From positions 537,925-601,924 of the forward strand of contig JACOWZ010000003.1 of the NCBI GenBank assembly GCA_016176525.1: a DNA stretch of 64,000 bases. Direction: 5' to 3'. This DNA is from Candidatus Colwellbacteria bacterium (GTDB lineage: Bacteria > Patescibacteriota > Minisyncoccia > UBA6257 > Colwellbacteraceae). The translations under genes were made by a program, and so were the position numbers. The number at the start of each line of letters is the position of its first letter. Position 1 is the first letter of the stretch. Positions 4,270-61,539 of the stretch are shown in pieces. The notes beneath the pieces were generated by a model that did no database searches, had not been told where the DNA came from, and saw nothing but the letters and a program-made list of their open reading frames with translations.

Positions 4270-4866
4270 ATGAAAACAGCGCTAATCTCCGTATACCATA
4301 AAGACGGCATTGTGGAGTTTGCAAGACGCCTCTTGAAAATTGGCGACTGGGAAATCCTTGCCTCTGGAGGCACAGCAAAGCACCTTGAAAACGCAGGAAT
4401 ACCAGTAGAAGATGTAGCAACACTAGTTGGCAAGCCGATACTCGGCCACCGCGTTGTCACTCTATCGCGAGAGATTCATGCGGCGCTTCTTGCGCGAGAT
4501 ACCCCAGAAGATCAGGCAGAACTTGACCGAATAGGCGTGCCGCGCATTGACCTAGTTTGCGTTGATCTCTATCCGCTAGAGGCCGCGATCAAAGAAGGCA
4601 AATCTGCCGAAGAAGTGCAAGAATTGACTGACATCGGCGGACCAACCCTTCTGCGCTCTGCCGCAAAAGGCAGGCGGCTCGTAATAGCAGAACCGCATGT
4701 ACGAGAAACTGTTCTGCAATGGCTCAAAAACGGGCGTCCTCACAATCATAAGGAATTCTGCCGAGCCCTCGCGGCAAAAGCCGAAGCTACTGTAGCGCAT
4801 TACTGCCTAACTTCGGCAGCGTACTTGGAAAAGAAGGTAGTAACTCTGCAACGATACAATACCTGA
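4270..4866 (+). CDS. Standalone PurH N-terminal-like domain (MGS-like / IMP cyclohydrolase domain). It lacks the AICAR transformylase domain.
   Basis: ALISVYHKDGIVEFARRLLKIGDWEILASGGTAKHLENAGIPVEDV...VVTLSREIHAALLAR...IDLVCVDLYPLEA aligns well with the PurH N-terminus (LLSVSDKAGIVEFA...LLSTGGTA...VVVNLYPF). The protein is only 198 aa. Its GC content is higher than that of its neighbours. Confidence 0.6.
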   Translation: MKTALISVYHKDGIVEFARRLLKIGDWEILASGGTAKHLENAGIPVEDVATLVGKPILGHRVVTLSREIHAALLARDTPEDQAELDRIGVPRIDLVCVDLYPLEAAIKEGKSAEEVQELTDIGGPTLLRSAAKGRRLVIAEPHVRETVLQWLKNGRPHNHKEFCRALAAKAEATVAHYCLTSAAYLEKKVVTLQRYNT

Positions 4867-5411
4867 CCGCACCCTAGCGGTCTTTTTTTATTCTCTTTTT
4901 CTAACTTTTCTAAAATAGTTTTCAAATTGCCAGATATAAAAACAAGATTGTCAGGTTCTTTAAATCCCAGCTTCTTGTACCAATTTAGTGAATAAGAATC
5001 CTTAAAGGTTGTTGCTTCGAAATATTTTGCATCATATTTATCTATAGCCTCTTGATATAGCGTCTTGGATAACTGCACTCCTACTCCCTTACCCTGATAA
5101 TCAGGCGCTACAAATATTTCGCCATCGTACAGACAATTACCGTTCCACCACGGTTTTACTGCTGTAAAAAATGCTCCAACTATTTTGCCATCATCTTCAG
5201 CTAGAAAATCTAATTTATTCTTTCTATCAAACCAGTATTTTAATAATTTGTGTGCTGATTTTTCAGTCCACTTCTCGCCAACATCATGTCTTTTTGGGTC
5301 ATAGACCTCACAATATAACTTTGCTAACAAATTTAAGTCACCTTCTTTTACGCGTCTTATTGATACTTTATTATTCTTCATGCGGACTTTTTTGCTATTT
5401 CTTCTCGCCAC
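4800..5411 (-). CDS. GNAT-family N-acetyltransferase
   Basis: Motif A-like QGKGVGVQLSKTLYQEA and the general layout of a GNAT fold. 203 aa. Confidence 0.55.
   Translation of the reverse strand: MARRNSKKVRMKNNKVSIRRVKEGDLNLLAKLYCEVYDPKRHDVGEKWTEKSAHKLLKYWFDRKNKLDFLAEDDGKIVGAFFTAVKPWWNGNCLYDGEIFVAPDYQGKGVGVQLSKTLYQEAIDKYDAKYFEATTFKDSYSLNWYKKLGFKEPDNLVFISGNLKTILEKLEKENKKRPLGCGQVLYRCRVTTFFSKYAAEVRQ
4865..4890 (+). terminator. Rho-independent terminator. Hairpin GACCGCACCCTAGCGGTC followed by a T7 run.
   Basis: Perfect 6-bp GC-rich stem and a T-run immediately after the stop of the 4270-4866 ORF. Confidence 0.55.
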
Positions 5412-5935
5412 TTGATTAATTTGTATTGATCAACAAGTTCAATCGGCTTATCTTCTGAAAACCTTTCTGCCTCTAGAGTGAATTTGTTAGTAGTAATAAA
5501 GTATCCTTTTCCGTTTGTAATCTTACCAGCAATCGCGCCATAAAAATCTCTCATGGCTCCAACCCCAACCTCTTGAATAATAAATTTCTTGCACTGTATA
5601 TAGTGCTTAATCCCGTCTTTTTCTGCTATAACATCTATTCCTCCATCATAAGGGCCTCCGACTGATTCGGTTCTAAATCCCATTTCTCTAAACATCCAAG
5701 CAATATAATCTTCAAATTCCTTAGGTGAGTATCTACGGATCTTATTGATATAGTCCTTACCTGAAAGCCATTTCTCGTTTTTCGCAAATCTTCCTTGCTT
5801 TAATAAATTAGGCAAAACACTGTATATAAAGATGCGGGAGGCAATTACAATTAATAAAATTATCCAAATCGGCCAAAGTTTCCATAATAACACTAATACA
5901 TCTTTCAATATCTGTAACCAAAAATTATCTAGCAT
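5378..5935 (-). CDS. Membrane-anchored Mrr-cat restriction endonuclease-like protein
   Basis: N-terminal TM segment. Then DGGIDVIAEK...IQCKKF, which matches the Mrr_cat (PD-(D/E)xK) catalytic signature D-x-D...QCK. Confidence 0.55.
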   Translation of the reverse strand: MLDNFWLQILKDVLVLLWKLWPIWIILLIVIASRIFIYSVLPNLLKQGRFAKNEKWLSGKDYINKIRRYSPKEFEDYIAWMFREMGFRTESVGGPYDGGIDVIAEKDGIKHYIQCKKFIIQEVGVGAMRDFYGAIAGKITNGKGYFITTNKFTLEAERFSEDKPIELVDQYKLIKWREEIAKKSA

Positions 5936-47839: not shown

Positions 47840-48607
47840 ATGAAAGTTGATTATCATTTTCACCCGAATCTTCCGAAGAGCGACAAACGCGCGCGGCGTA
47901 AAGTTGCTAAAATATATTCTAAACTCCAAGATGCGGGTATTCGTTGCGTTATTATAACCGAACACGTTTACAAAAACTACCGGCGCGCGTGGCAGATGAT
48001 GTTGGAGCAAAAACCTGCAAACATTTCTATATTCCCCGGGCTAGAATATGTAACAAAAGAAAATATTGATATATGCATATTTGCAGAAACCGAAAAGATA
48101 TATCAACACGAATTTGTGCCATTTAAGTGGACTTATGAAGAAGTGCTCGCATACCTTAAGCAAAATACAGATATATTCGGTTATGTAACACACCCCCTTA
48201 CCTTAGGACAAACAAGTATTGTAGATAAAAAAGGAGCGGACTTTGCAAAACTTGCTATAAGCCAACTTGGAGCAGTTGAGGCGTCTTACACAGCTCTATC
48301 CAAGCTAAAAAATATTATAATTAGTAAGAAAACCTTAAATAGAATAAAAGACAACGAAAACCTACCGCAGGAATTCTATCCCAAGAATATAAAATTCCTA
48401 ACCACCGGAAGTGATGCGCATCATCCGTGGGATATAGGAATGTGCACAGAGGTTGAAGAAAAAAGCAGCGTGTTTGATTCAATAATAAGCAATAAAAGCA
48501 TGAAAGTAGTAGGCAAAAGAGATGCAACCGTAATACAAACTATAAGAAGTATATTAACGGTTATACACGAATGGTGGTTAAAAATCTGGTATAGGTTATG
48601 GAAATAG
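47840..48607 (+). CDS. PHP-domain (polymerase/histidinol-phosphatase-like) metal-dependent phosphoesterase
   Basis: MKVDYHFHPN (HxH). ...ITEHVY... ...TGSDAHHPWDIG, a PHP motif order with the terminal DAH. Confidence 0.55.
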   Translation: MKVDYHFHPNLPKSDKRARRKVAKIYSKLQDAGIRCVIITEHVYKNYRRAWQMMLEQKPANISIFPGLEYVTKENIDICIFAETEKIYQHEFVPFKWTYEEVLAYLKQNTDIFGYVTHPLTLGQTSIVDKKGADFAKLAISQLGAVEASYTALSKLKNIIISKKTLNRIKDNENLPQEFYPKNIKFLTTGSDAHHPWDIGMCTEVEEKSSVFDSIISNKSMKVVGKRDATVIQTIRSILTVIHEWWLKIWYRLWK

Positions 48608-49131
48608 TAATACAAGTAATTTGGCTTTTATTGCCGGCGGCTGTCGCAAATATTTGCCCCGTAATTTTCCGCTTTTTGCCTATATTAAATTACCCGGTTG
48701 ATTTTGGTAAAACCTTTAACGGTAAGCCAATCTTAGGGCGCCACAAAACTTACAGGGGTTTCCTAGTAGGGATCTTGGGCGGAATATTAACAGCACAAGC
48801 GCAAAAAGCTCTTTACCCAATAATGGAAGCTTATTCAATAGTAGATTACTCGCAGATAAATATATTTATATTCGGTTTTGCGCTTTCTGCCTCTGCTCTT
48901 CTGGGAGATACCGCAAAGAGTTTTTTAAAAAGAAGGTTGAACATCGCACCGGGCAAACCATGGATTCCATTTGACCAAATTGACTGGATTGTAGGGTCAC
49001 TTATCGCGGCGAGTTTTTGGGTTACATTAAACCTCTCCATAATAGTGGTAGGCATTTTTGTGCTAGGCACGTTGCACTTTATACTCAACTTGATTGGGTA
49101 TGCAACCGGCCTAAGAGAAGAAAATCTATAA
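48598..49131 (+). CDS. CarS-like (DUF46, CDP-archaeol synthase family) integral membrane cytidylyltransferase
   Basis: 177 aa with 5 TM helices. LLPAAVANICPVI and FGKTFNGKPILGRHKTYRGF resemble the CarS PAYxANxxPV and GxxKTxxG cytoplasmic-loop motifs. This is from memory of the family, not from a database search. Confidence 0.5.
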   Translation: MEIVIQVIWLLLPAAVANICPVIFRFLPILNYPVDFGKTFNGKPILGRHKTYRGFLVGILGGILTAQAQKALYPIMEAYSIVDYSQINIFIFGFALSASALLGDTAKSFLKRRLNIAPGKPWIPFDQIDWIVGSLIAASFWVTLNLSIIVVGIFVLGTLHFILNLIGYATGLREENL

Positions 49132-49699
49132 GAGCTTTAGTTGCTAAAAAAGCGGCAAAAAGCATAGATGTTATGTTTAGGTAATCCGCACCTGTAAAAA
49201 CATAAACCGTAAAAATCGCATAAGAAAGGTATGCCAAAACATTGGGGAATGCGCCTGCCATAGGGCGGATAAGCCAATCACTGACACGCCCCAGATTCTT
49301 GCGCACTACCATAAGAACCCTTGCAAGCAGCATAAAATAAACATAGGCTGCCCCGGCGGCTCCAGAGACTAAAGAGACGGCCGTAAGACCGATAATAAAC
49401 AAAGTAAAATTCAAGTTATCTACTAAAACGTCTGTAAACTTACCTTTATCTGAATCTACTTTTAAATATCTCGCCAACCCACCATCAAACGCATCCATTG
49501 CAAGGGCAGCAAGTAAAAAATAAAAAGACATAAGCGGATTTGTGCCAACAAAATATATAAACCCAAGCATCAAAAAAACGCCCGCAAAACTCAATGCTGA
49601 TGGGTGAACCCTAAAAAATGCCAAGACTTTAACTATAGGCCTAATTAGGGGCTCACGGATATCGCGTAGCCAATAATACATTTTCTCTTCGCCGTTCAT
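49085..49699 (-). CDS. CDP-alcohol phosphatidyltransferase family protein
   Basis: DAFDGGLARYLKVDSDKGKFTDVLVD fits the D-G-x2-A-R-x8-G-x3-D-x3-D signature. 204 aa, polytopic. Confidence 0.7.
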   Translation of the reverse strand: MNGEEKMYYWLRDIREPLIRPIVKVLAFFRVHPSALSFAGVFLMLGFIYFVGTNPLMSFYFLLAALAMDAFDGGLARYLKVDSDKGKFTDVLVDNLNFTLFIIGLTAVSLVSGAAGAAYVYFMLLARVLMVVRKNLGRVSDWLIRPMAGAFPNVLAYLSYAIFTVYVFTGADYLNITSMLFAAFLATKALIDFLLLGRLHTQSS

Positions 49700-50786: not shown

Positions 50787-51092
50787 TTACTGCATGGGTC
50801 TGCGTGGGCGGCCAAAGCCACCGTTGCCTCTCGGCGCACGCTCTTCCATTGGTTTGGCAATGTTGACGGTTAAATTTCTGCCTTCAAAATCCTTTCCGTT
50901 CCACATATCAATCGCCTTTTGAGCTTCTTCGTCTGTAGACATTTCTACAAAACCGAAACCCTTGCTCCTACCAGACATCCTGTCAATAATTATGTTTACT
51001 GTCTCAACAGTGCCGGCTTGGGCAAAAGCGCTCTTTAAAGCATCATCTGTGGTGGAATATGGCAAACCGCCAATATACAATCTCTTAGCCAA
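50787..51092 (-). CDS. RRM-domain RNA-binding protein
   Basis: RNP2 LYIGGL and RNP1 KGFGFVEM motifs. A C-terminal RG-rich tail. 101 aa. Confidence 0.75.
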   Translation of the reverse strand: MAKRLYIGGLPYSTTDDALKSAFAQAGTVETVNIIIDRMSGRSKGFGFVEMSTDEEAQKAIDMWNGKDFEGRNLTVNIAKPMEERAPRGNGGFGRPRRPMQ

Positions 51093-51206: not shown

Positions 51207-54200
51207 TTAGAAGTCAATTGTGATATTTGATACCCTAAGCTGATAATCGCCATTCTGGAAATCAAACCGTATTGTATTGCTCACAGTTGAAAATACGTTA
51301 AATGTGCGGGTGGCATAAGTTCCGGTGTTACTCTCGGTGCACGTGCCGGCGCCTGTGTATGGAGTTGTAAAAGAGAACGTGTCCACCAAAGAGCCGTCAA
51401 AATAAGTTCTGATGTATGCTGTAGACCCATTACTATTGGCGTAATAACAATATTTGTAAGAAATTGCTACCGGGGAAGAGGTATCGCTAACACCATGGAA
51501 GGTTGCTAGTGTACCTGTGGTGCCATTAGCGCCTGTGGAATTAAGTTTACGGGCGTGGCGGCTAATTCCAGATTCATTTTCAAACTCCAAAGATGACGCC
51601 CAGTCATTGATGCCAAAGCTTGGAAAATCAGGATAAGTTCCATCTTCAAAAACATGCACAGAACCGCCATAATCTATATCTTGATACAAAGCCACTCTAT
51701 ATGTTGTACCTACCTTTGCCGATGAAGCGAAATCACCCCAGCCATAACTGTGCAAATTTGAGATAGCTGAACAGCAACTAAATCCTGTGGTGCTGCCTCC
51801 ATACCACGAATCTTGATACAGCGCTATAGGATAGTTATATACTACTGTTGCTGTGCGGCTGGAGTTTACGGTAAGTTTACACCTAACCCAATCAAGAGTT
51901 GTGCTCGTAGGAGTTCCGCTGTAACTCCACACCTGGTCATCACAGCCTGTAAAATCTTCTATAATCTTACCACTCAGTTCTCCTGTAGATGTAAGTTCAA
52001 TGTAGGTGCCGCCACTTATGCTTGGTTTTGAATAGTTTGTAGTGCCTCCATATGTCGATGGGCTGCCGGTAATAGAGACGCCAGATAATCCACTTGAGTT
52101 AACATTAAGTGTATATGACGCATAGGATCCCTGCGCATAGTAGTAGCCTTGATAGTAGCCTTGGTAATAGCCTTGATAGTAGCCTTGGCCGTAGTAATAT
52201 CCTTGATAATAGCCTTGATAGTATCCTTGACCGTAGTAATATCCTTGGCCGTAGTAATAACTTTGGTAATATCCTTGATAATATCCTTGGCCGTAGTAGT
52301 AGCCTTCTGAGTAGTAAGCTCCTTGGCTGTAGTAGTATCCTTCTGCGTAAGGTGTGACGCTAAAAGCAAACTCCGCTGGTGTTGTATCTTCATTTAACAC
52401 CGCGTCTCTGGCTTTAACCTCAAATGTATGGCTTCCGACTGACTGAGTCGGTAAAGTAACCGAAGTTGGAGTTGACCACGATGACCAACTACTACTGCCG
52501 CCCGTGAATGAATATTGCTTCCCTGATCCGCCGTTATATAGCTCTGAGATCTCTGCAGCAGATAAAGTACGGTTCCAAATTGCAAGTTCGTCAATTTTAC
52601 CGTCGGAGTCTCCGTAAAACGGAGCGTTCGTGCAGGTAGATTGATACATAAACCTATAAAGACCAATGTTAATCGGACAGCCGGATGTAAAAATTGGAGT
52701 TGTAGTAGGTGGGCTAAATGTAGCGCTTAACGCACCATTAATATAAGTCTTAAATGTGGTTCCAGACTTAGTGGTAGCGATATGATACCACTGGCCTGCA
52801 GAAAGCGCGCCGGTATCCCCCAGACTTGTCCACGATTCTTGTACTAGTGTTCTTACATTGCCGCTAGAGCTCAATACATAACTTCTGAAAGCCGTTGATT
52901 CACTTGATGTGGGTATATCAATAATTGTGAAGGACTCTCCTCCAACCCAACCATCTATAAATATCCAAGCGGCATAACTAAAGTCGCCTGATGGGAAGGT
53001 AGGGCTGCTCACTCGCGCATAATCATCGGCGCCATCAAAGCTTAACGCAGAGCCTATTTTGCCCGTTGCCCATGTAGTGTTATTAAATAAAGATCCATTG
53101 CTCGTGCCATGGCTATCAGAAAATGATGTGCCAGAGCCCTCATCAAATTTCCAGTAAGATATAAGACTATCTGTTAAAGTGGAAGATCCTCCCCCACCTC
53201 CTCCACCGCCCGGTACAAATTCAACATCCGCCTGGCCGTACATATAGTTTGTAACAGTATTCGTAGGCATACTATTACTTTGATACAAATACCCAGAATT
53301 TTTTATATTCACGCTACCGGAAGTTACAGGGGTGGTAAATGTTGTATAGCAGTAACCCCCGTCCCTTACAGCCACAAAATAATCAGTGTTTGCTGTAATA
53401 GAAACCGGAGTTATGTTTGTATAGACCCAATTAGTTGTACCTGTTGTGTTTACTGTTGCGCTCGCAAGTAATGCGCTGTCGCTTACTCTATAAAGTCTAA
53501 CGGTTCTTGTGGCTGAAGCACATCTAGACCCTAATTTAGTTATCTGGCCGTCAATAGACGCAGAAAATTTATAGCCCATATTATAGTCGCCAGTAGTTGA
53601 ACTTGGTGTTGCTATGCCGGTTGCCTGAAGCGGTGTTTCTGGTGTTCCGGAGTCTTGGCTAACCTGCCAGCTAAATGTGCATGGCGAGTTTGCGCCACCG
53701 CAATCAGACCCAGACCCACCATAACCGAATGTGGGAGTGGAATCTGATGTGCTGGCTCCGGGATTGCTTGTAATTACTGTGTTAGGCGCTGTGGTATCAA
53801 TAGTAAAGCTATATGAGGCTGGTGTAAGGTCTTCGTTTGGTACGTTCGTTACTGCATCCCTCGCTTTTACATAAAATGTATGCCCGCCATCAAGTAGGGC
53901 ACCTGTAGTCACCGATGCGGTAGTTGACCATGCGGAGTATGTGCCACTGTCAATTTTCCAGCTATATTGGCATGGGGTATGCGCATCTGTACAGCTATAT
54001 GCAAAGCTGGGTGTAGTGTCGGTTGAAACTGTGAGCGGGTTTGAAGTAATAGATGTTGCCGGACCCGTTGCATCAACCGTAAAGCTAAAGCTAGCCGGCG
54101 TTGTATCTTCTGTGCCAGCGCTATCTCGCGCTTTTACATAAAATGTGTGTGCACCATCAGATAAGGCTCCAGTAGTTGCTGAAAGCAAGGCTGACCATGC

Positions 54201-54740
54201 GGAATATACTCCGCCGTCAACTTGCCAAGCGAATTCACAGGTAGTTGTGTCGCAACCATATCCAAAAGTTGGGGTTGAATCATTAATTAATGTGCCAGGA
54301 GTAGAAAGAATCGCCGTAATCGGTATGCTATTTATCGTATTTAAAGTGTACCTCCTAAACCAACCGACACCCGGGCTTGTGTCTGATGCAACCTGCACAT
54401 CATTGTCCGGCCTGCCGTTGCCATCTGCATCTTGCATCCAAAGGTATGTTTTACGCAGTTGCGCATCTCCAATAAGCACTATTGAACCCTGAATATTAAT
54501 TGAATAGCCCGAGTTCCAAACGATTGTTTGCCCTGTGTTAACAGTAAGAGTAGTTCCCGAACTGACAGTTAAGTTGCCTTGCTCAATACCATCGGTGCCG
54601 CTGGGGAACTGACACGATGAAGACACAGTGGTGTTGCCCGAGGCATCCCTGGAACAATCAGCAGCAAAGGCGGGCTCGCCGTTTAAAAGCACAAAGAAAA
54701 ATGCGATAAAAGCTAATATGCTGATAGTTTTTTTAATCAT
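51207..54740 (-). CDS. Giant secreted surface protein (1177 aa) with Ig-like repeats, a poly-Gly linker, a LamG/concanavalin-like domain and a Y/G/Q-rich tandem repeat
   Basis: Signal peptide MIKKTISILAFIAFFFVLLNGEPAFA. Three repeats of about 85 aa (TPTFGYGCDTT...GAHTFYVKARDSAGTEDTTPASFSFTVD). GGGGGGGG. LamG-like ...DELAIWNRTLSAAEISELYNGG. (GYYQ/GYYYGQ)n block. Confidence 0.6.
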   Translation of the reverse strand: MIKKTISILAFIAFFFVLLNGEPAFAADCSRDASGNTTVSSSCQFPSGTDGIEQGNLTVSSGTTLTVNTGQTIVWNSGYSINIQGSIVLIGDAQLRKTYLWMQDADGNGRPDNDVQVASDTSPGVGWFRRYTLNTINSIPITAILSTPGTLINDSTPTFGYGCDTTTCEFAWQVDGGVYSAWSALLSATTGALSDGAHTFYVKARDSAGTEDTTPASFSFTVDATGPATSITSNPLTVSTDTTPSFAYSCTDAHTPCQYSWKIDSGTYSAWSTTASVTTGALLDGGHTFYVKARDAVTNVPNEDLTPASYSFTIDTTAPNTVITSNPGASTSDSTPTFGYGGSGSDCGGANSPCTFSWQVSQDSGTPETPLQATGIATPSSTTGDYNMGYKFSASIDGQITKLGSRCASATRTVRLYRVSDSALLASATVNTTGTTNWVYTNITPVSITANTDYFVAVRDGGYCYTTFTTPVTSGSVNIKNSGYLYQSNSMPTNTVTNYMYGQADVEFVPGGGGGGGGSSTLTDSLISYWKFDEGSGTSFSDSHGTSNGSLFNNTTWATGKIGSALSFDGADDYARVSSPTFPSGDFSYAAWIFIDGWVGGESFTIIDIPTSSESTAFRSYVLSSSGNVRTLVQESWTSLGDTGALSAGQWYHIATTKSGTTFKTYINGALSATFSPPTTTPIFTSGCPINIGLYRFMYQSTCTNAPFYGDSDGKIDELAIWNRTLSAAEISELYNGGSGKQYSFTGGSSSWSSWSTPTSVTLPTQSVGSHTFEVKARDAVLNEDTTPAEFAFSVTPYAEGYYYSQGAYYSEGYYYGQGYYQGYYQSYYYGQGYYYGQGYYQGYYQGYYYGQGYYQGYYQGYYQGYYYAQGSYASYTLNVNSSGLSGVSITGSPSTYGGTTNYSKPSISGGTYIELTSTGELSGKIIEDFTGCDDQVWSYSGTPTSTTLDWVRCKLTVNSSRTATVVYNYPIALYQDSWYGGSTTGFSCCSAISNLHSYGWGDFASSAKVGTTYRVALYQDIDYGGSVHVFEDGTYPDFPSFGINDWASSLEFENESGISRHARKLNSTGANGTTGTLATFHGVSDTSSPVAISYKYCYYANSNGSTAYIRTYFDGSLVDTFSFTTPYTGAGTCTESNTGTYATRTFNVFSTVSNTIRFDFQNGDYQLRVSNITIDF
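52110..52340 (-). repeat. In-frame tandem short repeat encoding (G-Y-Y-Q / G-Y-Y-Y-G-Q)n inside the giant surface protein
   Basis: 12-15-nt units (tagtagccttga / taatatccttga...) repeated about 15 times. Protein: EGYYYGQGYYQGYYQSYYYGQGYYYGQGYYQGYYQGYYYGQGYYQGYYQGYYQGYYYAQG. Confidence 0.7.
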
Positions 54741-55201
54741 AATGTTAGCTCTATTATTGAATCGCTCGTGGCATCATATGCCGAGATAACCGCGTTGTAG
54801 CCTGTAACACTATCATAATTTGCAGCCCACTTGCCCTGCCAAAAGCCATCTCTGCTTCTGCCGTTTAAGAGCTCTAGTTGATACGGATATTCCTGTGTTT
54901 CGGTTTTTATAGTCACTGTGACCGATTTTACGGGCCTAAAATTTGTAACATGCACGCTAAACATCTGCTCCTCGCCGCGCTTAATATCAAACGGGTCAAT
55001 AAAGCCGCTTACTATTCTTGGACCCCTCTCGCCGCTAGAAACAGTAAACACCTCGCCCCTTTCCGACGGGCTCGGCACAAATTTATCACTATTCACTACC
55101 TGCTCTTCGCTAAAAGGAAATAAAGTTATAAATACAAAAAATATGGCAATTGCAAGCGCAAAGAGAGCTAGATAATCTTGTTGACTGCCTTTTTTAGCCA
55201 T
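54737..55201 (-). CDS. Small secreted/membrane-anchored hypothetical protein of 154 aa
   Basis: N-terminal hydrophobic helix. It overlaps the giant protein start by 4 bp. Confidence 0.35.
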   Translation of the reverse strand: MAKKGSQQDYLALFALAIAIFFVFITLFPFSEEQVVNSDKFVPSPSERGEVFTVSSGERGPRIVSGFIDPFDIKRGEEQMFSVHVTNFRPVKSVTVTIKTETQEYPYQLELLNGRSRDGFWQGKWAANYDSVTGYNAVISAYDATSDSIIELTL

Positions 55202-55719
55202 TAATTAATTATAACATTATAAAGCACAGCGATGCTGTGGAGAATTGGCAAGGCAGATGCATCCCCAGACGGCTCTACAATTATGCGCCAGAGCATTGCC
55301 CTGCCTTTAGTATTTGGAAAAACAACTCTTTCTCCAACTTTCACACTATGCCAAGTTGCGCCGTCGTTAGAAAGTTCCAGAGTAATATCGCTATCGCCAC
55401 CGGTAAAATCCAGATTATCTATTGAGGCAGATCGCACCTCGCCACCGTAGGTGTTGAGGTTTGCAGAGACAAGCTGGCCGGGCGAGATAAAGGCCATTGC
55501 CTCGGGGTCATGCCGCATAGTTGTTTCTGCCATATTAATCCATGTCGCGCTAGAAAATATATCTGTAAAGCTTGCGTCGCGTGCGTCCTCCGGCGCCTCG
55601 CTCGTTTTACCATCCGTATAAATCCACGCTAGAAGTATGGCGCTTGCTAAAAGCAAAACAACAAGCGCGCCAAACGCTATTCGTTTACTATTAGTTTGCC
55701 CGTTACTTCGTTCCTGCAT
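55201..55719 (-). CDS. Small membrane-anchored hypothetical protein of 172 aa
   Basis: N-terminal TM helix ALVVLLLASAILLAWIY. It is contiguous with its neighbours. Confidence 0.35.
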   Translation of the reverse strand: MQERSNGQTNSKRIAFGALVVLLLASAILLAWIYTDGKTSEAPEDARDASFTDIFSSATWINMAETTMRHDPEAMAFISPGQLVSANLNTYGGEVRSASIDNLDFTGGDSDITLELSNDGATWHSVKVGERVVFPNTKGRAMLWRIIVEPSGDASALPILHSIAVLYNVIIN

Positions 55720-56243
55720 GAATTTTGGCAGTAAAATTCGTATTCGCCATGGCCAGAAACCTGGAATTGTATAGTTTCTGTTGTGCCCTCAATTATTTCT
55801 TTATAAACTCCCAGGTCCGAGAAAAAGATATCGTAGTTGCCGTCAACCGCTGTAAAATTAATCTTTACAATATCACCGGTGTTTACAACGATTGTACTCG
55901 GCACATATTTTTGATTCTCCCCGCTTATATCAAACTCGCGGCGCTCAACTGTGCCGACTTGTGTAACTTTTGTTGGTACAGCAACATCTTGATTGGCTGA
56001 ACTCCCCACTTCGGGGGTAGCTACTGTCTCTGTTATTTCTTTTCTTGTACCGCCCTCTACGGTTTCTAATGCATCTGGGTCGTTTGGTCTGAATCTGTCT
56101 TCACCCAAAACTACCACGCCTTCATCGGTTAACAATTGCGGTTCTTGTGTAGGCGCAGGTTTAAGTTGTAAAAATAAAATAATAATAACAGCAACTGCGG
56201 CAACCAGTGCCATACCCCATATTAACTGTGCCTTAACACTCAT
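55677..56243 (-). CDS. Small secreted hypothetical protein of 188 aa, possibly with an Ig-like beta domain
   Basis: N-terminal TM/signal segment, a Pro/Thr/Glu-rich linker, then a beta-rich C-terminal domain. I recognise no catalytic motif. Confidence 0.35.
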   Translation of the reverse strand: MSVKAQLIWGMALVAAVAVIIILFLQLKPAPTQEPQLLTDEGVVVLGEDRFRPNDPDALETVEGGTRKEITETVATPEVGSSANQDVAVPTKVTQVGTVERREFDISGENQKYVPSTIVVNTGDIVKINFTAVDGNYDIFFSDLGVYKEIIEGTTETIQFQVSGHGEYEFYCQNSCRNEVTGKLIVNE

Positions 56244-56259
56244 AGTTTTATTATATCAC

Positions 56260-59200
56260 TTATAATTTTTCGTTTATGTTAATCGCGCCTTCTTTTATGT
56301 GCTCTCCAACTTCATCATCTGTTATTGCTCTATCCGCTACCAACCTGTAGCTTACCTCTCCTTCGCCGCTGCCGTGGATTGTAAGGGTATTTGCGATTGT
56401 GTCTTTGGTGTACCAAACGCGGCCATCAAACCCCGGGGTTAAAAACACCTGCAGACCCTCCATATCCGCACCAAAGTTTGTTATTTGGTAGAAAACCCAA
56501 AGATTACTGCCTCGCTTAAGGTTATCAAAATCAATAATATATTCATTCCCGGCTAGGTGCGCAGTGTCTACCACTTCTTCTTTTGTGGAACCCGCCATAA
56601 ATGGCGCATAGGTTGCGTAGTCTTCGCCGCCAATGTTGTACACCGGGTCGATCGTGGCAACTGTAATTTTGTTTACGCCAAGAATGTTGTTGTTATTCAT
56701 GTTTAAGTTGCCGTCAAAACGCCCTTCGCCTGCAACATGAAGTTTTACGGCAGGACTCGCCGTTCCGATGCCAACATTCCCGCTGCCTGGCATTAGCCGA
56801 ATATGATCACCCACTCCCCCGGCAGAATATAAAGAAAGATGGTTACCATTTTCCGCTTTTATACAAAATTCGTCTGTAACGTTTGTACAACTAGTCCATG
56901 CCCCGTCATACAACATAATACCCTGGCGTGTTGCTCCAGAATAAAACCCTAGCCACTCGTAAGTGGTGTCGTCTGCTCGCGCGCTATGGAATCCGATTTT
57001 ATCGTTTGTGCTGTTGATATCGGTGCCGATAGTCAGATTACCGGAGAATGTTCCCGATCCTCCATTCACTATATTTCTTGATGAATCTATAAATTGTGTG
57101 GTGCCGACTTTAAGGTCTCTCACCCTAAGGGTCTCGTATCCGGTTCCTGGGTTGTCTATAACCGCGAGATCCCCGCTGTTGTCGCCATCCACATAACCGA
57201 ACTGGGACGCAACCGCGCCGGAGTAGTGGAAAGATATTCTTGGGGCGTCGCCCGCGCCGGCGTTCCAATCCTGTATAACCTCTAGGGGCGCTTGGTTGTA
57301 AGCTAGTCCTGCGGAGCCCTGCAACAGACGCATCCTTCCGCTAACATCTAATTTGGACCCTGGACTCGTAGTCCCTATGCCGACGTTACCACTGGTGTTG
57401 GCAAAAAGTACGTTAGTGCGGTAGGCAAAGTTGCCTCCGCTTGCAACACTCAAGGTAGCTCCACCCGATCCCACCTCTAATGTGCCGTCAGTGCGCATTA
57501 TTCCAGCATTGTGGTAGATATTCTTAGAGCCATAACTTCGAATCCATGTAGTGTCTGACATATACCATCCACCACCATATGTTTCAAACAATAGCGGGTT
57601 ACTGCCTATAAGGCGTAGATTACCGCTTCCACGAATGTCTCCTATAACATCAAGGGGGTAACTTGGGCTCACCGTGCCTACACCTACACGCTGATTAGTT
57701 GCGTCAACGTATAAAACCGGTGAAGTACTCGCCGCCGCGTCAAAACGATAGCTGCCTTTTGTAGTGGTAGAACCAAACGTGCCCGGCGTAATTTGCCCAG
57801 CCGCAATTGCACTTGTGGTTTCTACATTGCCCGTAATGGTGCCGGATACATCCAAATCGCCGGTGATGTTTGTGTTACCGTTTACGTTTAGTTTGTATAC
57901 ACCGGGCGTTGTGGTGGCAATACCGACACTGCCGAATGTCGGAACAAGAAGAACGTTATTAGCTACACTAATCATATCTACATTAGCACCAGTAGCGCTA
58001 GCCGAAGTTCTAAGAACTATAGCATCATTTGTGTTATCTCTTACTTGTATGACTAATCTAGAGTCCTCTGTATTCAGATTATGCTCTCCATAGATTAATC
58101 CGTCGTCTGTAGACCCAATACCCGCTGTGCCGCTGTTTGTTCCCGCGTTGAATTGAATGGCATTTATTGGAATATTAACGTTTCCAATAACCTCAAGTTT
58201 TGTTGTTGGCGAGGCCGTCCCTATTCCAACGTTGCCAGATCTTTGAATCAGAAATCTAGGTGTCGTTAAATTATTATCATCAAATACTTGAAAGGCATTT
58301 GTACTATCATTGACTATAATATTCACAGTTGCATTTCCAGCTGCTCCGTTACCAACTTTAAGTTTGGGTTGAGCATCATCACTTATTCCTCTATCTGCAA
58401 CTTCTAAATTAGCACCTGGGCTAGCCGTACCTATGCCGATATTGCCGCTTCCATCTATTCTCATTCTTTCCGATGGAGCGTCGTTTGTTGAACCTGCGTT
58501 GAATATAATATCTCCCCCTGATTGATTAGCGTTGATATTCAATTCTCCACTCTGAACACCGAAACCGTAAACGGTGGTACCAGATTCATAAAGTCGAATA
58601 TGTGCAGTGGGATTTGTACCCCCAGTATCATAGAACGTTCCAAAGGACAATTTAGATCCCGGCGCCGTCGTCCCAATACCAACGTTGCCGTTCACGGAAA
58701 GCTTGGCCGTGTGGGACGTTACTCCTGCGTCATAACCAATTCCCACCTCGTTTTCGCCTTTCGCCTTAAAAGACACTATCTGGTTGCCGTCGCCATTGCC
58801 TACCCCGAAATTCTCGCCGCCAGTACTCGACTCGCCGACTAAGTAAAGTGTGTCATAGTCAGCAGTCGGCCCGGTGACGGTCCACCGGTAATCGATGGGG
58901 TTGGTTGTTCCGGTGGGCTCAATCCTTGACATACCCTTGACCGTCAACGGGTTACCCGGAGATGTCGTCCCGATGCCGACGTTGCCGCCTGCGGCTATTG
59001 TCAGCCTGTCCAATGAGTTTGTCCTAAATCTAAAATCCCTTGAACCAGAATTGTGCCCTATTGAAAGACCTGTATTGTCCATTACGAAGTCTGTTGTGTA
59101 TCCTGATGTTGACGTTGAACCATTGAATCTGAAAGCTGTATTTACACCATCTTGTATATGCAATTTCGTTCCAGGGCTCGTCGTCCCTATACCTACCCGC

Positions 59201-60639
59201 TCATTAGCTCCGTCAATAATAGCCCAGCCAGTTGTGAGCCCAGTCTTTCTAAATGTATAGTTTACAGAAGAGCTAGGATATGCAGAGCCAAAAGTGCCTC
59301 CACTAACTTGCGCTGCGACAAGTTCACTTGTGGTTTCTACATTGCCAGTAATTGTGCCAGATACGTCTAAATTACCAGTTATGTTTGTGTTGCCTGCGAC
59401 GTTCAGCTTATAAGTTCCCGGAGTAGTAATACCGATACCAACATTACCTGTTGAATCTATAGTAACTCTGTCAACTCCATTATCCTGGATATGCAAAGCA
59501 CTTATATCTGCATCAACCGATCCGATATATACATCATTAACACCATTTATCCCAAGGATTCTTGTTGATGCTCCTGCGGAATTCTTGGCTCTGTAATACT
59601 GTGCGTTTGCGTTCAGAGTTATGTCGCCGTTAACATCGAGCTTTGAACCCGGCGTGACTGTACCTATGCCGACGTTGCCGGAGTTGAGAATTGTCATGGC
59701 CGTTGTCGCATTGGTTCCCAAATAGATGTGATGGTTCTCGCGTTGCCACAGGTAGACATCCTGGTTTGAATCCACTTGGACATCAAATCCGTCACCGGAC
59801 GCAGACCCCGTGTTAGCGTTGCTTATCTTGATCTGAGAATCGGTTCCTGCACCATTCACATGCAATTGTCTTTGAGGACTTGTCGTCCCGATGCCGACGT
59901 TGCCGCTAACAACCAAACTATTTGCTGGCGCAGCAGTGCTTGCGGAATACCCTATTGCCGCGTTGCCATTGACTTGAAGTTTTGAACCTGCTGTTGCCGT
60001 GCCAATGCCAACCCCTCCGGTTCCGGATGGTTCAAGGATGATATCTCCTCCCCCCGGCTGTTCATTTTTAATATGGAAATCAAAAGTGTTAGCATTCGGA
60101 AAACCCAATTTTGCAAGGCTAGTCCAGCCCCCAACGGTTGGTGAAAAACCATACTCTATGTATGGTATGGCGGTGGCTGCGTCGGTTGCGGCACTTCGCA
60201 AGCGGAGGTGCGGGTTTATACCTTTAATCTCTAGTTTGGCTGCCGGTTCGCGAACGTTATCAACGAAATCATCGCCAATACCGACATTTGTGTTGTTATG
60301 AAAAAGGTTTGTCGTTGACACCCAAGCGGGCGCGCCCAGTGCATTCGTGCCTCCATAAATAGTTGCGCCTTGTATTACCGATGGTAACAGACCTTCAATC
60401 TCTCTCCATTCTGCTAAACCATCAGTGTTTGTGGCAGTAAGAACTGTGCCATCCGTCGGGTTGCCGCCGCTTATCTGAATACGCCTGCCGCCGGTAATTC
60501 CCACCGTAGTGTCTGAAACCGTTATAGCCGAACCTCCACCGCCAGGCGGTTGTTGAGTTGGTTGTGCAAAAACAACAGTAGCGCCAATTATGCTCACAAA
60601 GAGAAGCACAAGCGCCCGATTTAACACTCTTATAACCAT
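56260..60639 (-). CDS. Giant secreted repeat protein (1459 aa) with at least 12 repeats of a GNVGIGTTSPGxKL module. Probably a beta-helical fibre or adhesin.
   Basis: Signal-peptide-like N-terminus. Recurrent units such as SGNVGIGTTSPQRQLHVNG, GNVGIGTVTPGSKLDVNG, GNVGIGITTPGTYKLNVAGNTNITGNLDVSGTITGNVETTS (seen twice), GNIGIGTASPGANLEV and GNVGIGTASPAVKLHVAG. Confidence 0.6.
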   Translation of the reverse strand: MVIRVLNRALVLLFVSIIGATVVFAQPTQQPPGGGGSAITVSDTTVGITGGRRIQISGGNPTDGTVLTATNTDGLAEWREIEGLLPSVIQGATIYGGTNALGAPAWVSTTNLFHNNTNVGIGDDFVDNVREPAAKLEIKGINPHLRLRSAATDAATAIPYIEYGFSPTVGGWTSLAKLGFPNANTFDFHIKNEQPGGGDIILEPSGTGGVGIGTATAGSKLQVNGNAAIGYSASTAAPANSLVVSGNVGIGTTSPQRQLHVNGAGTDSQIKISNANTGSASGDGFDVQVDSNQDVYLWQRENHHIYLGTNATTAMTILNSGNVGIGTVTPGSKLDVNGDITLNANAQYYRAKNSAGASTRILGINGVNDVYIGSVDADISALHIQDNGVDRVTIDSTGNVGIGITTPGTYKLNVAGNTNITGNLDVSGTITGNVETTSELVAAQVSGGTFGSAYPSSSVNYTFRKTGLTTGWAIIDGANERVGIGTTSPGTKLHIQDGVNTAFRFNGSTSTSGYTTDFVMDNTGLSIGHNSGSRDFRFRTNSLDRLTIAAGGNVGIGTTSPGNPLTVKGMSRIEPTGTTNPIDYRWTVTGPTADYDTLYLVGESSTGGENFGVGNGDGNQIVSFKAKGENEVGIGYDAGVTSHTAKLSVNGNVGIGTTAPGSKLSFGTFYDTGGTNPTAHIRLYESGTTVYGFGVQSGELNINANQSGGDIIFNAGSTNDAPSERMRIDGSGNIGIGTASPGANLEVADRGISDDAQPKLKVGNGAAGNATVNIIVNDSTNAFQVFDDNNLTTPRFLIQRSGNVGIGTASPTTKLEVIGNVNIPINAIQFNAGTNSGTAGIGSTDDGLIYGEHNLNTEDSRLVIQVRDNTNDAIVLRTSASATGANVDMISVANNVLLVPTFGSVGIATTTPGVYKLNVNGNTNITGDLDVSGTITGNVETTSAIAAGQITPGTFGSTTTKGSYRFDAAASTSPVLYVDATNQRVGVGTVSPSYPLDVIGDIRGSGNLRLIGSNPLLFETYGGGWYMSDTTWIRSYGSKNIYHNAGIMRTDGTLEVGSGGATLSVASGGNFAYRTNVLFANTSGNVGIGTTSPGSKLDVSGRMRLLQGSAGLAYNQAPLEVIQDWNAGAGDAPRISFHYSGAVASQFGYVDGDNSGDLAVIDNPGTGYETLRVRDLKVGTTQFIDSSRNIVNGGSGTFSGNLTIGTDINSTNDKIGFHSARADDTTYEWLGFYSGATRQGIMLYDGAWTSCTNVTDEFCIKAENGNHLSLYSAGGVGDHIRLMPGSGNVGIGTASPAVKLHVAGEGRFDGNLNMNNNNILGVNKITVATIDPVYNIGGEDYATYAPFMAGSTKEEVVDTAHLAGNEYIIDFDNLKRGSNLWVFYQITNFGADMEGLQVFLTPGFDGRVWYTKDTIANTLTIHGSGEGEVSYRLVADRAITDDEVGEHIKEGAININEKL

Positions 60640-60657
60640 TCTCGTAATTATAACATC

Positions 60658-61539
60658 TTATATAGCGGCGCAGGTGTTGAAATCTTTAACACTTTGGTTA
60701 TATGTTGCAATGTCTTCTTTAACCTCTTCAAGTAGGGCATTATATTGCTCGGCAAGCGCGTTGTATTCATCTATCTTTTGGTTATACTCCGGCCCGCTCT
60801 TGGGCCTGGTTTGTTCCAAATCAACTTTCCGCTCTTCTAGCTCCGCCGCCCAAATTTCTAGTTGCGCCTCATTTGATTCAATCTCCGCGGCCAAATACTC
60901 TGCTACAGGCGGGCAATAAGAGAGAGGCAAGCCAAATTCTTGCGCGGCAAGCCAAACACTTTGGCCATTAAACTCACCTTTTTCTGCATACACGCCAATT
61001 TCCGTAAACCTCTGGTTAAGAATATTTGCTCTGTGGCCTGGGCTATTCATCCAACCATCTACAACCATTTCGTCCCCCGCCCAGTTGCCCAGCGCCAAGT
61101 TTTCGCCTATCAAAATAAATTGATAGTTTGCGCCCGCTGCCAGATCCGCAGGACCCGTGCCATTGGGCGAAACGTGTTCAAAATATTCAAGCGCGAACAT
61201 ATCTTTAACCTTAGCGATGGCGGCATTTTTAAGTTTTAAGTTTTCAGAGAGGGGCGGTAAACCCTGTTCCGCACGATGTTTGTTTGTCCAACTTATTATG
61301 CCCGCGCTTGTAAGCTCTTTGCCGGGCAGAGATGTGCGTGATTTTAAGGGGCCGGGTGTGAGCACACGGTCTGCGCTGGGCAAAACCTCAACGCGAGAAA
61401 CAATGTCACTCAAAATTTCGTCTACTGCAGGCAGCCTTGACCATAAGCTCGCGATATCAGAACGGAACACCGTTAACACACCTACTGTAACTACCAATGC
61501 AAGAAATACTAAAATTATTTTTATTATGTGATTAAACAT
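60658..61539 (-). CDS. CAP (SCP/PR-1-like) domain protein with an N-terminal TM helix and a C-terminal coiled coil
   Basis: GWMNSPGHRANILNQRFTEIGV is a canonical CAP motif (HYTQVVW / GHxxN-type region). The N-terminal helix is IILVFLALVVTVGVLTVF. The C-terminus is E/L/A-rich. Confidence 0.65.
   Translation of the reverse strand: MFNHIIKIILVFLALVVTVGVLTVFRSDIASLWSRLPAVDEILSDIVSRVEVLPSADRVLTPGPLKSRTSLPGKELTSAGIISWTNKHRAEQGLPPLSENLKLKNAAIAKVKDMFALEYFEHVSPNGTGPADLAAGANYQFILIGENLALGNWAGDEMVVDGWMNSPGHRANILNQRFTEIGVYAEKGEFNGQSVWLAAQEFGLPLSYCPPVAEYLAAEIESNEAQLEIWAAELEERKVDLEQTRPKSGPEYNQKIDEYNALAEQYNALLEEVKEDIATYNQSVKDFNTCAAI

Follow-up and report, generated by a model that had tools for sequence, protein, structure and literature searches.

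A tyrosine-rich tract with a constant two-residue register in a predicted exported modular protein of Candidatus Colwellbacteria

The window analysed here, a stretch of 64,000 nucleotides, belongs to a metagenome-assembled genome (MAG) of Candidatus Colwellbacteria, a CPR lineage under whose name NCBI lists the neighbouring proteins, in agreement with an initial annotation that had judged the cell to be CPR-like. All features of the window described below lie on its reverse strand. An operon is headed by an exported tail-fibre-like protein of 1459 aa (56260..60639; phrog_9942, E=7.5e-42), continues with three small membrane-anchored proteins and ends with the gene for an exported modular protein of 1177 aa (51207..54740), whose CDS was defined by ORF translation and is the same in two Logan assemblies. 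Two of the small proteins, of 172 aa and 188 aa (the latter cupredoxin-like), are anchored N-terminally (55201..56243; ORFs, profile scan, hydrophobicity), and the third, of 154 aa, lies immediately upstream of the modular protein (54737..55201). Spacing is tight throughout, with overlaps of 4, 1 and 43 nt and one gap of 16 nt; the start codon of the 1177-aa gene overlaps the stop codon of the 154-aa gene (ATGA). No full-length homologue of the 1177-aa protein was present among 5.8 billion proteins searched, although parts of it are common to other proteins. The open reading frame and nearly all of the features that had been listed for it proved to be real.

The protein opens with a predicted signal peptide (aa 1-26, 54663..54740; sequence) composed of MIKK, a 15-residue hydrophobic core and AFA|AD, which is its sole hydrophobic segment. 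The signal peptide proposed previously fits this leader, and the family of the adjoining N-domain begins exactly where cleavage is predicted. A motif and hydrophobicity scan of the 1177 aa found neither an LPxT[GAS] motif nor a C-terminal hydrophobic segment of the sortase-anchor type. The signal peptide is followed by a mini beta-helix, two Big_13 domains, a third Ig-like domain with a nested DUF4082-Gly8-LamG segment, and a Tyr/Gly/Gln tract, beyond which lie, in this order, InlB-B-like, beta/gamma-crystallin and jelly-roll domains. The N-terminal beta-helix and the InlB-B-repeat-like, beta/gamma-crystallin and C-terminal jelly-roll-like domains had escaped the initial annotation, as had the nested insert in the third Ig domain, the split gene pair and the apparently CPR-restricted, recurrent tract module.

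Three repeats of about 85 aa with conserved Cys pairs had been described. These are Big_13 Ig-like repeats and each has its Cys pair (C163/C168, C250/C257 and C347/C354), but only two are contiguous: repeat 1 (aa 141-225, 54066..54320; PF19077, E=3.3e-8, 34.4 bits against a Pfam cut-off of 27), and in tandem with it repeat 2 (aa 226-316, 53793..54065; internal alignment, 55-57% identity to repeat 1). The third is broken into an N-terminal half (aa 317-365, 53646..53792), aligning with the first half of repeats 1 and 2, and a C-terminal half (aa 746-797, 52350..52505), aligning with their second half. When joined, the two halves are collinear with repeats 1 and 2 at 55-57% identity, and the 380 aa between them consist of DUF4082, Gly8 and LamG; on this internal alignment, the third Ig domain is predicted to carry these as a nested insert. 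DUF4082 (aa 366-510, 53211..53645; PF13313, E=1.9e-12) scored 47.8 bits against a cut-off of 28.4 when these residues were scanned alone, and went unreported in the full-length scan. The Gly8 linker is present as claimed (aa 511-518, 53187..53210; TRF array 53188-53211). The LamG or concanavalin-A-like domain (aa 519-745, 52506..53186), likewise named before, is confirmed by a Laminin_G_3 match (PF13385, E=1.3e-22) that spans aa 569-732, including DELAIWNRTLSAAEISELYNGG, and covers profile positions 1-151 of 151 with 81 bits against a cut-off of 27.6; its closest solved chain is 4qvs_A (E=3.9e-12).

Three domains lie C-terminal to the tract. The first, C1 (aa 877-968, 51837..52112), has no direct Pfam match, also when scanned apart, and is described as a divergent InlB-B-repeat-like domain through its homologues (P0122, P0125, P0126, P0130 and P0131), among which P0125 scores 25.3 against PF18998 (cut-off 23.6) and P0130 20.0, a link to the target that is transitive only. 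The second (aa 969-1056, 51573..51836) is a borderline member of the beta/gamma-crystallin family: PF00030 gives 28.1 bits alone (cut-off 25), 20.6-24.5 in longer contexts and 20.6 at full length, and the two YxxxxYxG Greek-key signatures, YQDSWYGG and YQDIDYGG, can be seen in the sequence. The third, C3 (aa 1057-1177, 51210..51572), is jelly-roll or CBM-like.

At the opposite end, the N-domain (aa 27-140, 54321..54662) has a conserved Cys pair (C29, C43), and its roughly 115 aa are confidently modelled as a mini right-handed beta-helix (pLDDT 94.5), with beta-helix adhesins such as tapirins as the best structural matches (PDB 4wa0, 6n2b, 6n2c). Its family comprises 560 clusters. Elsewhere in CPR this domain is fused to that of the 154-aa protein: when aa 40-154 of the latter were joined to the mature N-terminus of the former, single proteins from UBA2163 and Saccharibacteria aligned collinearly and without a gap at the junction (BLASTP E=1e-27), and a 154-like domain is fused to the N-domain in 31 of the best-scoring 150 family representatives. 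The split arrangement is found again at two other loci (L012 and L017), with an ATGA overlap at L012. The 154-aa protein and the beta-helix are thus seen, by alignment, as one polypeptide in other CPR lineages and as a predicted split gene pair here. Only 6 of the same 150 representatives have Tyr-rich tracts, so that N-domain and tract need not occur together. No prepilin motif (TIGR02532 / PF07963) was recognised in the 154-aa and 172-aa proteins of the window. At locus L005, two genes upstream of a Tyr-tract gene, a protein bearing a 154-like domain (4610-5515) passes both models, with 25.7 bits against 16.3 and 25.9 against 21.2 respectively.

The Tyr/Gly/Gln tract itself (aa 798-876, 52113..52349), delimited by unit parsing and register count and picked up independently by TRF, contains 37 Y, 18 G and 13 Q in 79 aa (47% Tyr; P = 8e-27 against the Tyr frequency in the remainder of the protein). 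Its units are GYYQ or GYYY[GSA]Q. About 15 of them, encoded by a DNA repeat of 12-15 nt, had been reported; the tandem tract stands, with 14 units, but the DNA units are of 12 nt (seven, GYYQ-type) and 18 nt (seven, GYYYGQ-type). Units of 4 and 6 residues follow one another in irregular order, and residue parity is nevertheless perfect across all 79 aa. This pattern recurs elsewhere. We propose an uncurated tract family, defined by at least 20 aa built only of [GSA]YY[QE] and GYYY[GSAT][QE] units, about 48% Tyr, constant residue parity and an exported protein; the target, with 14 units, 47% Tyr, perfect parity and a predicted signal peptide, falls within it. The family has 33 non-redundant proteins (Y 48%, G 21%, Q 16%), and a hydrophobic leader is present in 27 of the 30 with an intact N-terminus; one of them, P0133, has by eye a pilin-like G|FTLL leader, without a family match. 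In 185,579 species representatives the tract matched 10 loci in 8 genomes, all Patescibacteria, and none was found in viral contigs. It is apparently a recurrent, so far undescribed module, matching only CPR among the genomes searched. Tracts of this kind break contigs and evade Pfam and NCBIfam, which makes them a useful flag for annotators.

The grammar of these tracts is strict. Even lengths account for 452 of 458 units, and since units have 4 and 6 residues, Tyr and Gln fall on one parity and Gly and Tyr (or small residues) on the other; Q/E occupies one parity in 489 of 493 cases, G the opposite parity in 541 of 546, and parity is perfect in 32 of 35 tracts. We read the register pattern as pointing to a silk- or zipper-like beta structure, extended and with two faces, predicted from sequence, although even-only lengths could stem in part from duplication of whole units and not from selection on register. 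Within tracts TAC outnumbers TAT by 774:354, against 152:145 outside (p=4e-8), a preference that points to selection on the translated product. The initial annotation had favoured phase separation, and essentially the same view, that the tract is a disordered, FUS-like sticker acting through Tyr-Tyr contacts in phase separation or non-specific adhesion, draws on a composition resembling an extreme [G/S]Y[G/S]Q low-complexity domain, on the irregular succession of units, and on a length (26-192 aa) and position (N-terminal, internal or C-terminal) that vary greatly among family members. AlphaFold2 (AF2) returned coil for the tract (pLDDT 32-40), which would also suit disorder, but the run is not informative, since with an alignment of 12 sequences the crystallin domain, which Pfam supports, came out just as low. 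Disorder, however, gives no reason for parity, yet 99% of Q/E and G are in register, distant lineages included; 5-residue units such as GYYYQ, the easiest product of a single-codon slip, number 3 in 458; and 48% Tyr is far above known soluble prion-like domains. Such a register is unexpected of a purely disordered sticker and speaks for the two-faced extended strand; phase separation is weakened as an explanation, and we consider the disordered sticker rather doubtful.

Two further readings concern the mechanical role of the tract. It might be a passive or elastic spacer between the lectin-rich and C-terminal halves, without a binding role. The tract does sit between folded domains in the target, the protein has a Gly8 linker elsewhere, and G, Q and Y dominate elastomeric repeats too, as in HMW glutenin (GYYPTSPQQ/PGQGQQ). 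In many family members, however, the tract forms the very C-terminus (L006, L009, L021, L024, P0133 and P0139) or is accompanied by a single globular domain and nothing else, which leaves nothing to space; the conserved grammar and TAC bias would also be unusual for a spacer, which we regard as quite unlikely. Alternatively, oxidative cross-linking of Tyr in the tract, to dityrosine or by quinone tanning, could serve to harden an attachment plaque or a surface layer. Tyr-rich spore-coat and resilin-type proteins are precedents for cross-linking, Tyr density is very high in a protein predicted to be extracellular, the operon encodes a cupredoxin-fold protein, and weak cupredoxin-like matches occur in genes adjoining homologues at L006 and L021. 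Against this, the 188-aa cupredoxin-like protein lacks, by eye, a Cys-His-Met copper-site motif, the cluster genes examined include no oxidase, peroxidase or tyrosinase, and the MAG is apparently from groundwater, which is often low in oxygen. Cross-linking is compatible with a zipper, but is in itself distinctly improbable.

Slipped-strand variation in length had been predicted for the DNA repeat, and the locus does not bear this out. A contingency locus, in which mispairing rapidly changes tract length and thereby the cell surface, would accord with the widely varying tract lengths in the family, with the close homologues L019 and L020, which differ by exactly two SYYQ units, and with the many metagenome contigs that terminate within tracts. 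P0127 and P0128, with the same tract and C-terminal domain and unrelated N-terminal domains, could be cited in its favour; they indicate that the tract marks a shuffling junction. At this locus, however, synonymous codons are shuffled among the units, and no exact word longer than 21 nt recurs, a maximum among the shortest of a set ranging from 13 to 120 nt. All units, here of 12 and 18 nt, are multiples of 3 nt, which makes on/off frameshift switching impossible, and not one base of the CDS differs between the MAG window and two independent Logan assemblies from different runs. On these three grounds a phase-variable contingency locus is not supported here, and rapid slippage is very improbable. 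Nor is the length of the tract likely to result from collapse or expansion of the repeat in assembly. Assembly of tandem repeats readily goes wrong, and contigs elsewhere break at related tracts, but the NCBI MAG and the Logan assemblies agree in DNA, the absence of exact repeats longer than 21 nt makes the tract resolvable from ordinary short reads, the reading frame and the conserved terminator QGSYAS are intact, and many independent homologous tracts exist. An assembly artefact can be dismissed as extremely improbable.

Taken jointly, we read the protein as a Sec-exported, non-enzymatic adhesin, docked via the 154-aa partner and equipped with ligand-binding modules and a beta-zipper tract, to which we assign a probability of roughly 0.45. 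Apparently lacking any anchor of its own in membrane or wall, the protein would be retained at the surface by docking of its beta-helix onto the membrane-anchored 154-aa protein, as gene fusion logic, and that only, suggests. The LamG, DUF4082, crystallin and jelly-roll domains are putative binders of glycans or other surface ligands, on the host or on the cell's own envelope. The Tyr tract may take up an extended beta conformation, its two faces differing in chemistry, comparable to silk (GAGAGS/Y) or cross-beta zippers, and would then act as a cohesive stalk or zipper pairing with other tracts or a surface, and not as a floppy linker. Candidacy as a host-attachment factor, put forward in the initial annotation, is reasonable given an exported protein with lectin/adhesin modules, an envelope operon and the precedent of Saccharibacteria (PMC10633639), attachment itself being our inference; the interpretation given there holds for the CPR cell, export and the lectin/adhesin modules and is not supported for slippage.

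Parts of the fibre/small-protein/tract neighbourhood recur across Patescibacteria, and homologues of the C-terminal domain of the tail-fibre-like protein adjoin Tyr-tract or N-domain genes at 8 other CPR loci. A wider proposal, that a Patescibacteria-specific, two-faced (Tyr/Gln against Gly/Tyr) beta-zipper goes with a CPR-wide attachment apparatus of cassette and fibre protein, seems to us unlikely. If true, the zipper would be a bacterial counterpart of silk or amyloid in exported, pilin-like and fibre-associated proteins, polymerising or gluing epibiont to host. Apart from type IV pili and a handful of essential genes of adhesin type, little is known of attachment in CPR/Patescibacteria, and this locus supplies a sequence-definable module, matching only CPR genomes, with a testable prediction: residue parity predicts beta structure. 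As the conserved two-domain cassette is in some cases divided between two genes, a specific interaction of the two proteins is predicted, and the recurring tail-fibre-like neighbourhood is a third handle on CPR attachment. Homologues of cassette and tract occur in Saccharibacteria, the sole CPR lineage in which genes can be knocked out, and these ideas are therefore directly testable. The module is a testable candidate for the means by which CPR cells stick to each other or to hosts.

Epibiotic growth of cultivated Saccharibacteria requires several exported proteins with glycan-binding domains, and the essential proteins, which have been proposed to bind host glycans, have VCBS, dockerin and FN3 domains (PMC10633639). 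The target resembles these, by their description, in being a CPR protein, exported and lectin-like. Through Big_13 and LamG-type domains it is matched by 233 database proteins, none over more than about a third of its length. Like surface proteins of this class it combines a signal peptide with a ConA-like lectin domain and with Big_13 domains in tandem, whose loop holds a Cys pair, and its LamG part matches 4qvs, an S-layer-domain protein; it differs in the domain nested within an Ig fold, the CPR-specific beta-helix N-domain, the Tyr tract and the lack of an SLH, LPXTG or other known anchor. The modelled right-handed beta-helix is shared with tapirins, autotransporter passengers and Candida Awp A-domains. 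Tapirin genes adjoin those of type IV pili; in CPR, one protein related to the partner domain (L005) is a genuine prepilin. Curli CsgA and Fap also consist of exported repeats rich in Gln, Gly and aromatic residues and serve adhesion and matrix formation, but their strand-loop-strand units are of roughly 20 aa, against 4-6 aa here; the tract has no Pfam or NCBIfam match, and the operon no export or nucleator genes of that kind. With FUS-type [G/S]Y[G/S]Q domains the tract shares a Tyr/Gly/Gln(Ser) composition and cohesive Tyr. Tyr makes up roughly 15% of the FUS low-complexity domain, whereas the tract is extracellular and bacterial, with 47-48% Tyr, strict parity and no Ser/Pro spacers. Tyr, Gln and Gly are classic zipper residues, as in the GAGAGS and GAGAGY of silk fibroin and the GNNQQNY of Sup35. 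The tract is not homologous to these, has Tyr on both faces and irregular units of 4 and 6 residues, and is short (79 aa), with a predicted beta structure inside a globular multidomain protein; what it has in common with them is a strict dipeptide periodicity, by which one face receives the small residues and the opposite face residues of another chemistry.

The gene at 51207..54740(-) is a single open reading frame encoding an exported protein of 1177 aa. The initial annotation placed it in a CPR-like cell, and the CPR assignment is correct, since the neighbouring proteins are filed at NCBI under a Candidatus Colwellbacteria MAG, on a contig of 644,793 bp. Export was predicted from a signal peptide, which has the classic layout of a Sec signal (MIKK, a hydrophobic core of 15 residues and AFA|AD) and is the sole hydrophobic segment of the protein; the LPXTG motif is absent from the sequence, and the protein appears to possess no anchor of its own. 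The LamG domain recognized earlier is unambiguous (Laminin_G_3, E=1.3e-22), the nearest solved chain in the PDB to this region being 4qvs_A, and the Gly8 linker is present at aa 511-518. Three repeats of about 85 aa with Cys pairs had also been described; these are Big_13 Ig-like domains, but just two of them are contiguous and the third is split. When joined, the two halves of repeat 3 (aa 317-365 and 746-797) are collinear with repeats 1 and 2, to which they are 55-57% identical, and the 380 residues separating them consist of DUF4082 (E=1.9e-12 when the region is scanned alone), the Gly8 linker and LamG. Judged by sequence, DUF4082-Gly8-LamG is a putative nested domain insertion in a loop of the third Ig domain. 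Three further domains lie downstream of the tyrosine tract: a divergent InlB-B-repeat-like domain, assigned transitively through the homologous protein P0125; a beta/gamma-crystallin domain, which is a borderline match with two Greek-key signatures; and a C-terminal domain (C3), modelled as a jelly-roll resembling carbohydrate-binding modules. The AF2 model of aa 790-1177 has a mean pLDDT of 45.9; the C3 domain alone is usable, and the model says nothing about the tract. Scans of PHROGs and NCBIfam returned a weak match on the LamG region and nothing else, while a full-length search was dominated by Big_13 repeat proteins, and none of the matches listed covers more than 33% of the query.

The Tyr/Gly/Gln repeat reported for this protein occupies aa 798-876 (52113..52349), where 37 Tyr, 18 Gly and 13 Gln are found in 79 residues; relative to the Tyr frequency in the rest of the protein, this enrichment in Tyr has P = 8e-27. 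It is a tandem array of 14 units, which measure 12 and 18 nt rather than 12-15 nt: seven GYYQ units (4 residues, 12 nt) are combined with seven GYYY[GSA]Q units (6 residues, 18 nt). At the DNA level the tract is far from a clean microsatellite, since synonymous codons are mixed and the longest word repeated exactly is 21 nt. TAC:TAT is 22:15 within the tract against 13:43 in the remainder of the gene (p=9e-4), and TAC is favoured within such tracts generally (774:354, versus 152:145 outside; p=4e-8). Slipped-strand length variation, suggested for this locus, is unsupported, given that every unit keeps the reading frame, codon choice is scrambled and the sequence is the same in three assemblies; two of these are Logan assemblies, one from run SRR12113430 and one from SRR12113383, in which the coding sequence is base-identical. 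It is very unlikely that the tract arose as an assembly artefact. Unit number does change over evolutionary time, as seen in two homologous loci, L019 and L020, which differ by exactly two SYYQ units. Contig ends are frequent at tracts with longer exact repeats. Tyr tracts break short-read assemblies and are therefore probably under-counted in MAGs; contigs that start or end within a tract are L003, L005, L011, L013, L014, L016, L017, L022 and L026.

When the C-terminal third of the target was used as query, the same tract was found in otherwise unrelated proteins. The back-translated motif YYQGYYYxQGYY occurs at 10 loci in 8 of 185,579 species-representative genomes, all of these loci belonging to Patescibacteria (Saccharibacteria, Taylorbacteria, Parcubacteria, UBA2163 and others), and at 14 metagenome loci; viral contigs gave zero matches. 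No chain in the PDB resembles the tract, a literature collection of some 8 million papers yielded no match to six motif strings, and the term 'tyrosine-rich' is absent from the 15 CPR papers examined for it. Across 33 non-redundant proteins the tracts are 26-192 aa long (Y 48%, G 21%, Q 16%) and follow a strict grammar of GYYQ-type and GYYY[GSAT]Q-type units. Because unit lengths are almost all even (452/458), Q/E and Gly keep to opposite residue parities within each tract, a rule obeyed by 489 of 493 Q/E and by 541 of 546 Gly, and parity is perfect in 32 of 35 tracts, including that of the target. Divided by parity, the tract presents Tyr and Gln on one face and Gly, Tyr and small residues on the other, and it may form an extended, two-faced beta structure serving as a cohesive stalk or zipper. 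The tract could instead be a sticker with no ordered structure at all, though this fits the parity rule poorly. Tract position varies, being directly after the signal peptide, between domains or at the extreme C-terminus; a passive linker is also possible, but is a poor fit to the many tracts that form C-terminal tails. A hydrophobic leader is present in 27 of the 30 Tyr-tract proteins with an intact N-terminus. The Tyr-tract protein P0133 combines a pilin-like G|FTLL leader, recognized by eye, with a C-terminal Tyr tail, and had no match among prepilin family models.

These protein families also contain other Tyr-rich 'dialects' (YAYSQ[ST]TY octamers, GYGYGQGYYQDYYY and GYYYGYGQ, in P0171, P0255, P0257, P0287 and P0136), so that tracts rich in Tyr are a wider theme among CPR exported proteins. 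In a Saccharibacteria homologue (L007, 2357-5122(+)) a segment just after the Tyr tract resembles, by eye, an autoprocessing domain of the Hint/intein type (CFGPDTKIEMANG...HN), and another Saccharibacteria contig, L010, encodes two tandem paralogues of a large fused protein (876 and 877 aa), both ending in a Tyr tract. Proteins P0127 (locus L018) and P0128 (locus L027) have in common the tract and, at ~90% identity, a C-terminal Ig-like domain. Their DNA similarity starts within the tract, which suggests that tracts are sites of module shuffling; their Cys-rich N-terminal domains are unrelated and their genomic flanks different. We rejected the idea that these represent one locus with a swapped N-terminal domain; since the flanks are unrelated, the claim is limited to module sharing.

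At the other end of the protein, aa 27-145 belong to a family of 560 cluster representatives, recovered by exhaustive HMMER search; a word-index search with aa 1-145 had found no match. The AF2 model of this N-domain, a mini beta-helix after the signal peptide (aa 27-140), is an all-beta fold with pLDDT 94.5 (43-sequence alignment). Immediately upstream, a membrane-anchored protein of 154 aa (54737..55201) has a stop codon that overlaps the target start codon (ATGA). Proteins from UBA2163 and Saccharibacteria carry a domain homologous to this neighbour ahead of the N-domain in one polypeptide; when the 154-aa protein and N-domain are concatenated, the alignment is gapless across the junction (E=1e-27), and such fusions account for 31 of the 150 top-scoring representatives of the family. 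The target and its neighbour are a product of gene fission, and the split form is also seen at the homologous loci L012, with an identical ATGA overlap, and L017. At L005 (4610-6393) the modules occupy three separate consecutive genes, which encode a bona fide prepilin bearing the 154-like domain (N_methyl above cut-off, GspG-like), an N-domain protein and a Tyr-tract protein that carries a signal peptide itself. Obligate coupling of N-domain and Tyr tract was considered and rejected, Tyr-rich tracts being present in 6 of these 150 representatives. The beta-helix of the target probably docks onto the membrane-anchored 154-aa protein.

The target is the final gene of a compact operon on the minus strand, in which it follows, in this order, the genes for proteins of 1459, 188, 172 and 154 aa. 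The 1459-aa protein (56260..60639(-)) is exported and tail-fibre-like, with many GNVGIGT-type repeats (phrog_9942, E=7.5e-42), and it ends in a domain of ~165 aa with homologues near Tyr-tract or N-domain genes at eight other CPR loci. Homology was rejected between this C-terminus and the C-terminal domain of P0123-type proteins, the commonest Tyr-tract family (best E=0.64). A prophage origin for the cluster was also rejected, on the grounds that viral contigs do not match the tract motif, that rplJ/rplL and dcw genes adjoin the cluster, and that its synteny extends over several CPR lineages. The operon region includes a membrane-anchored, cupredoxin-fold protein (55677..56243(-); Cupredoxin_1, E=3.6e-11), and in two other CPR genomes genes flanking the fused homologues have weak cupredoxin-like matches (L006, 3257-4882; L021, 8474-10099). 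The Tyr tract could possibly be a cross-linking substrate; the idea that the cupredoxin protein acts as a Tyr oxidase is of low probability, because by eye the Cys-His-Met copper site is absent. Elsewhere in the window, a CAP (cysteine-rich secretory protein) domain protein is encoded at 60658..61539(-), immediately upstream of the fibre gene, and a small RRM-type RNA-binding protein at 50787..51092(-), between the target and rplJ. A CarS-like (CDP-archaeol-synthase-type) gene at 48598..49131(+) and a CDP-alcohol phosphatidyltransferase gene at 49085..49699(-), with Pfam labels taken from the Logan gene table, are convergent and overlap by 47 nt.

As to function, we infer that the lectin-type modules of the target would bind glycans or surface ligands. 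The observation that drew attention to this gene was real, and the protein is richer in features than had been listed. As far as these searches show, the Tyr tract, the cassette of beta-helix and 154-like domain and the fibre-gene neighbourhood are undescribed, CPR-specific features, and the target as a whole combines known adhesin-type domains in a new way.
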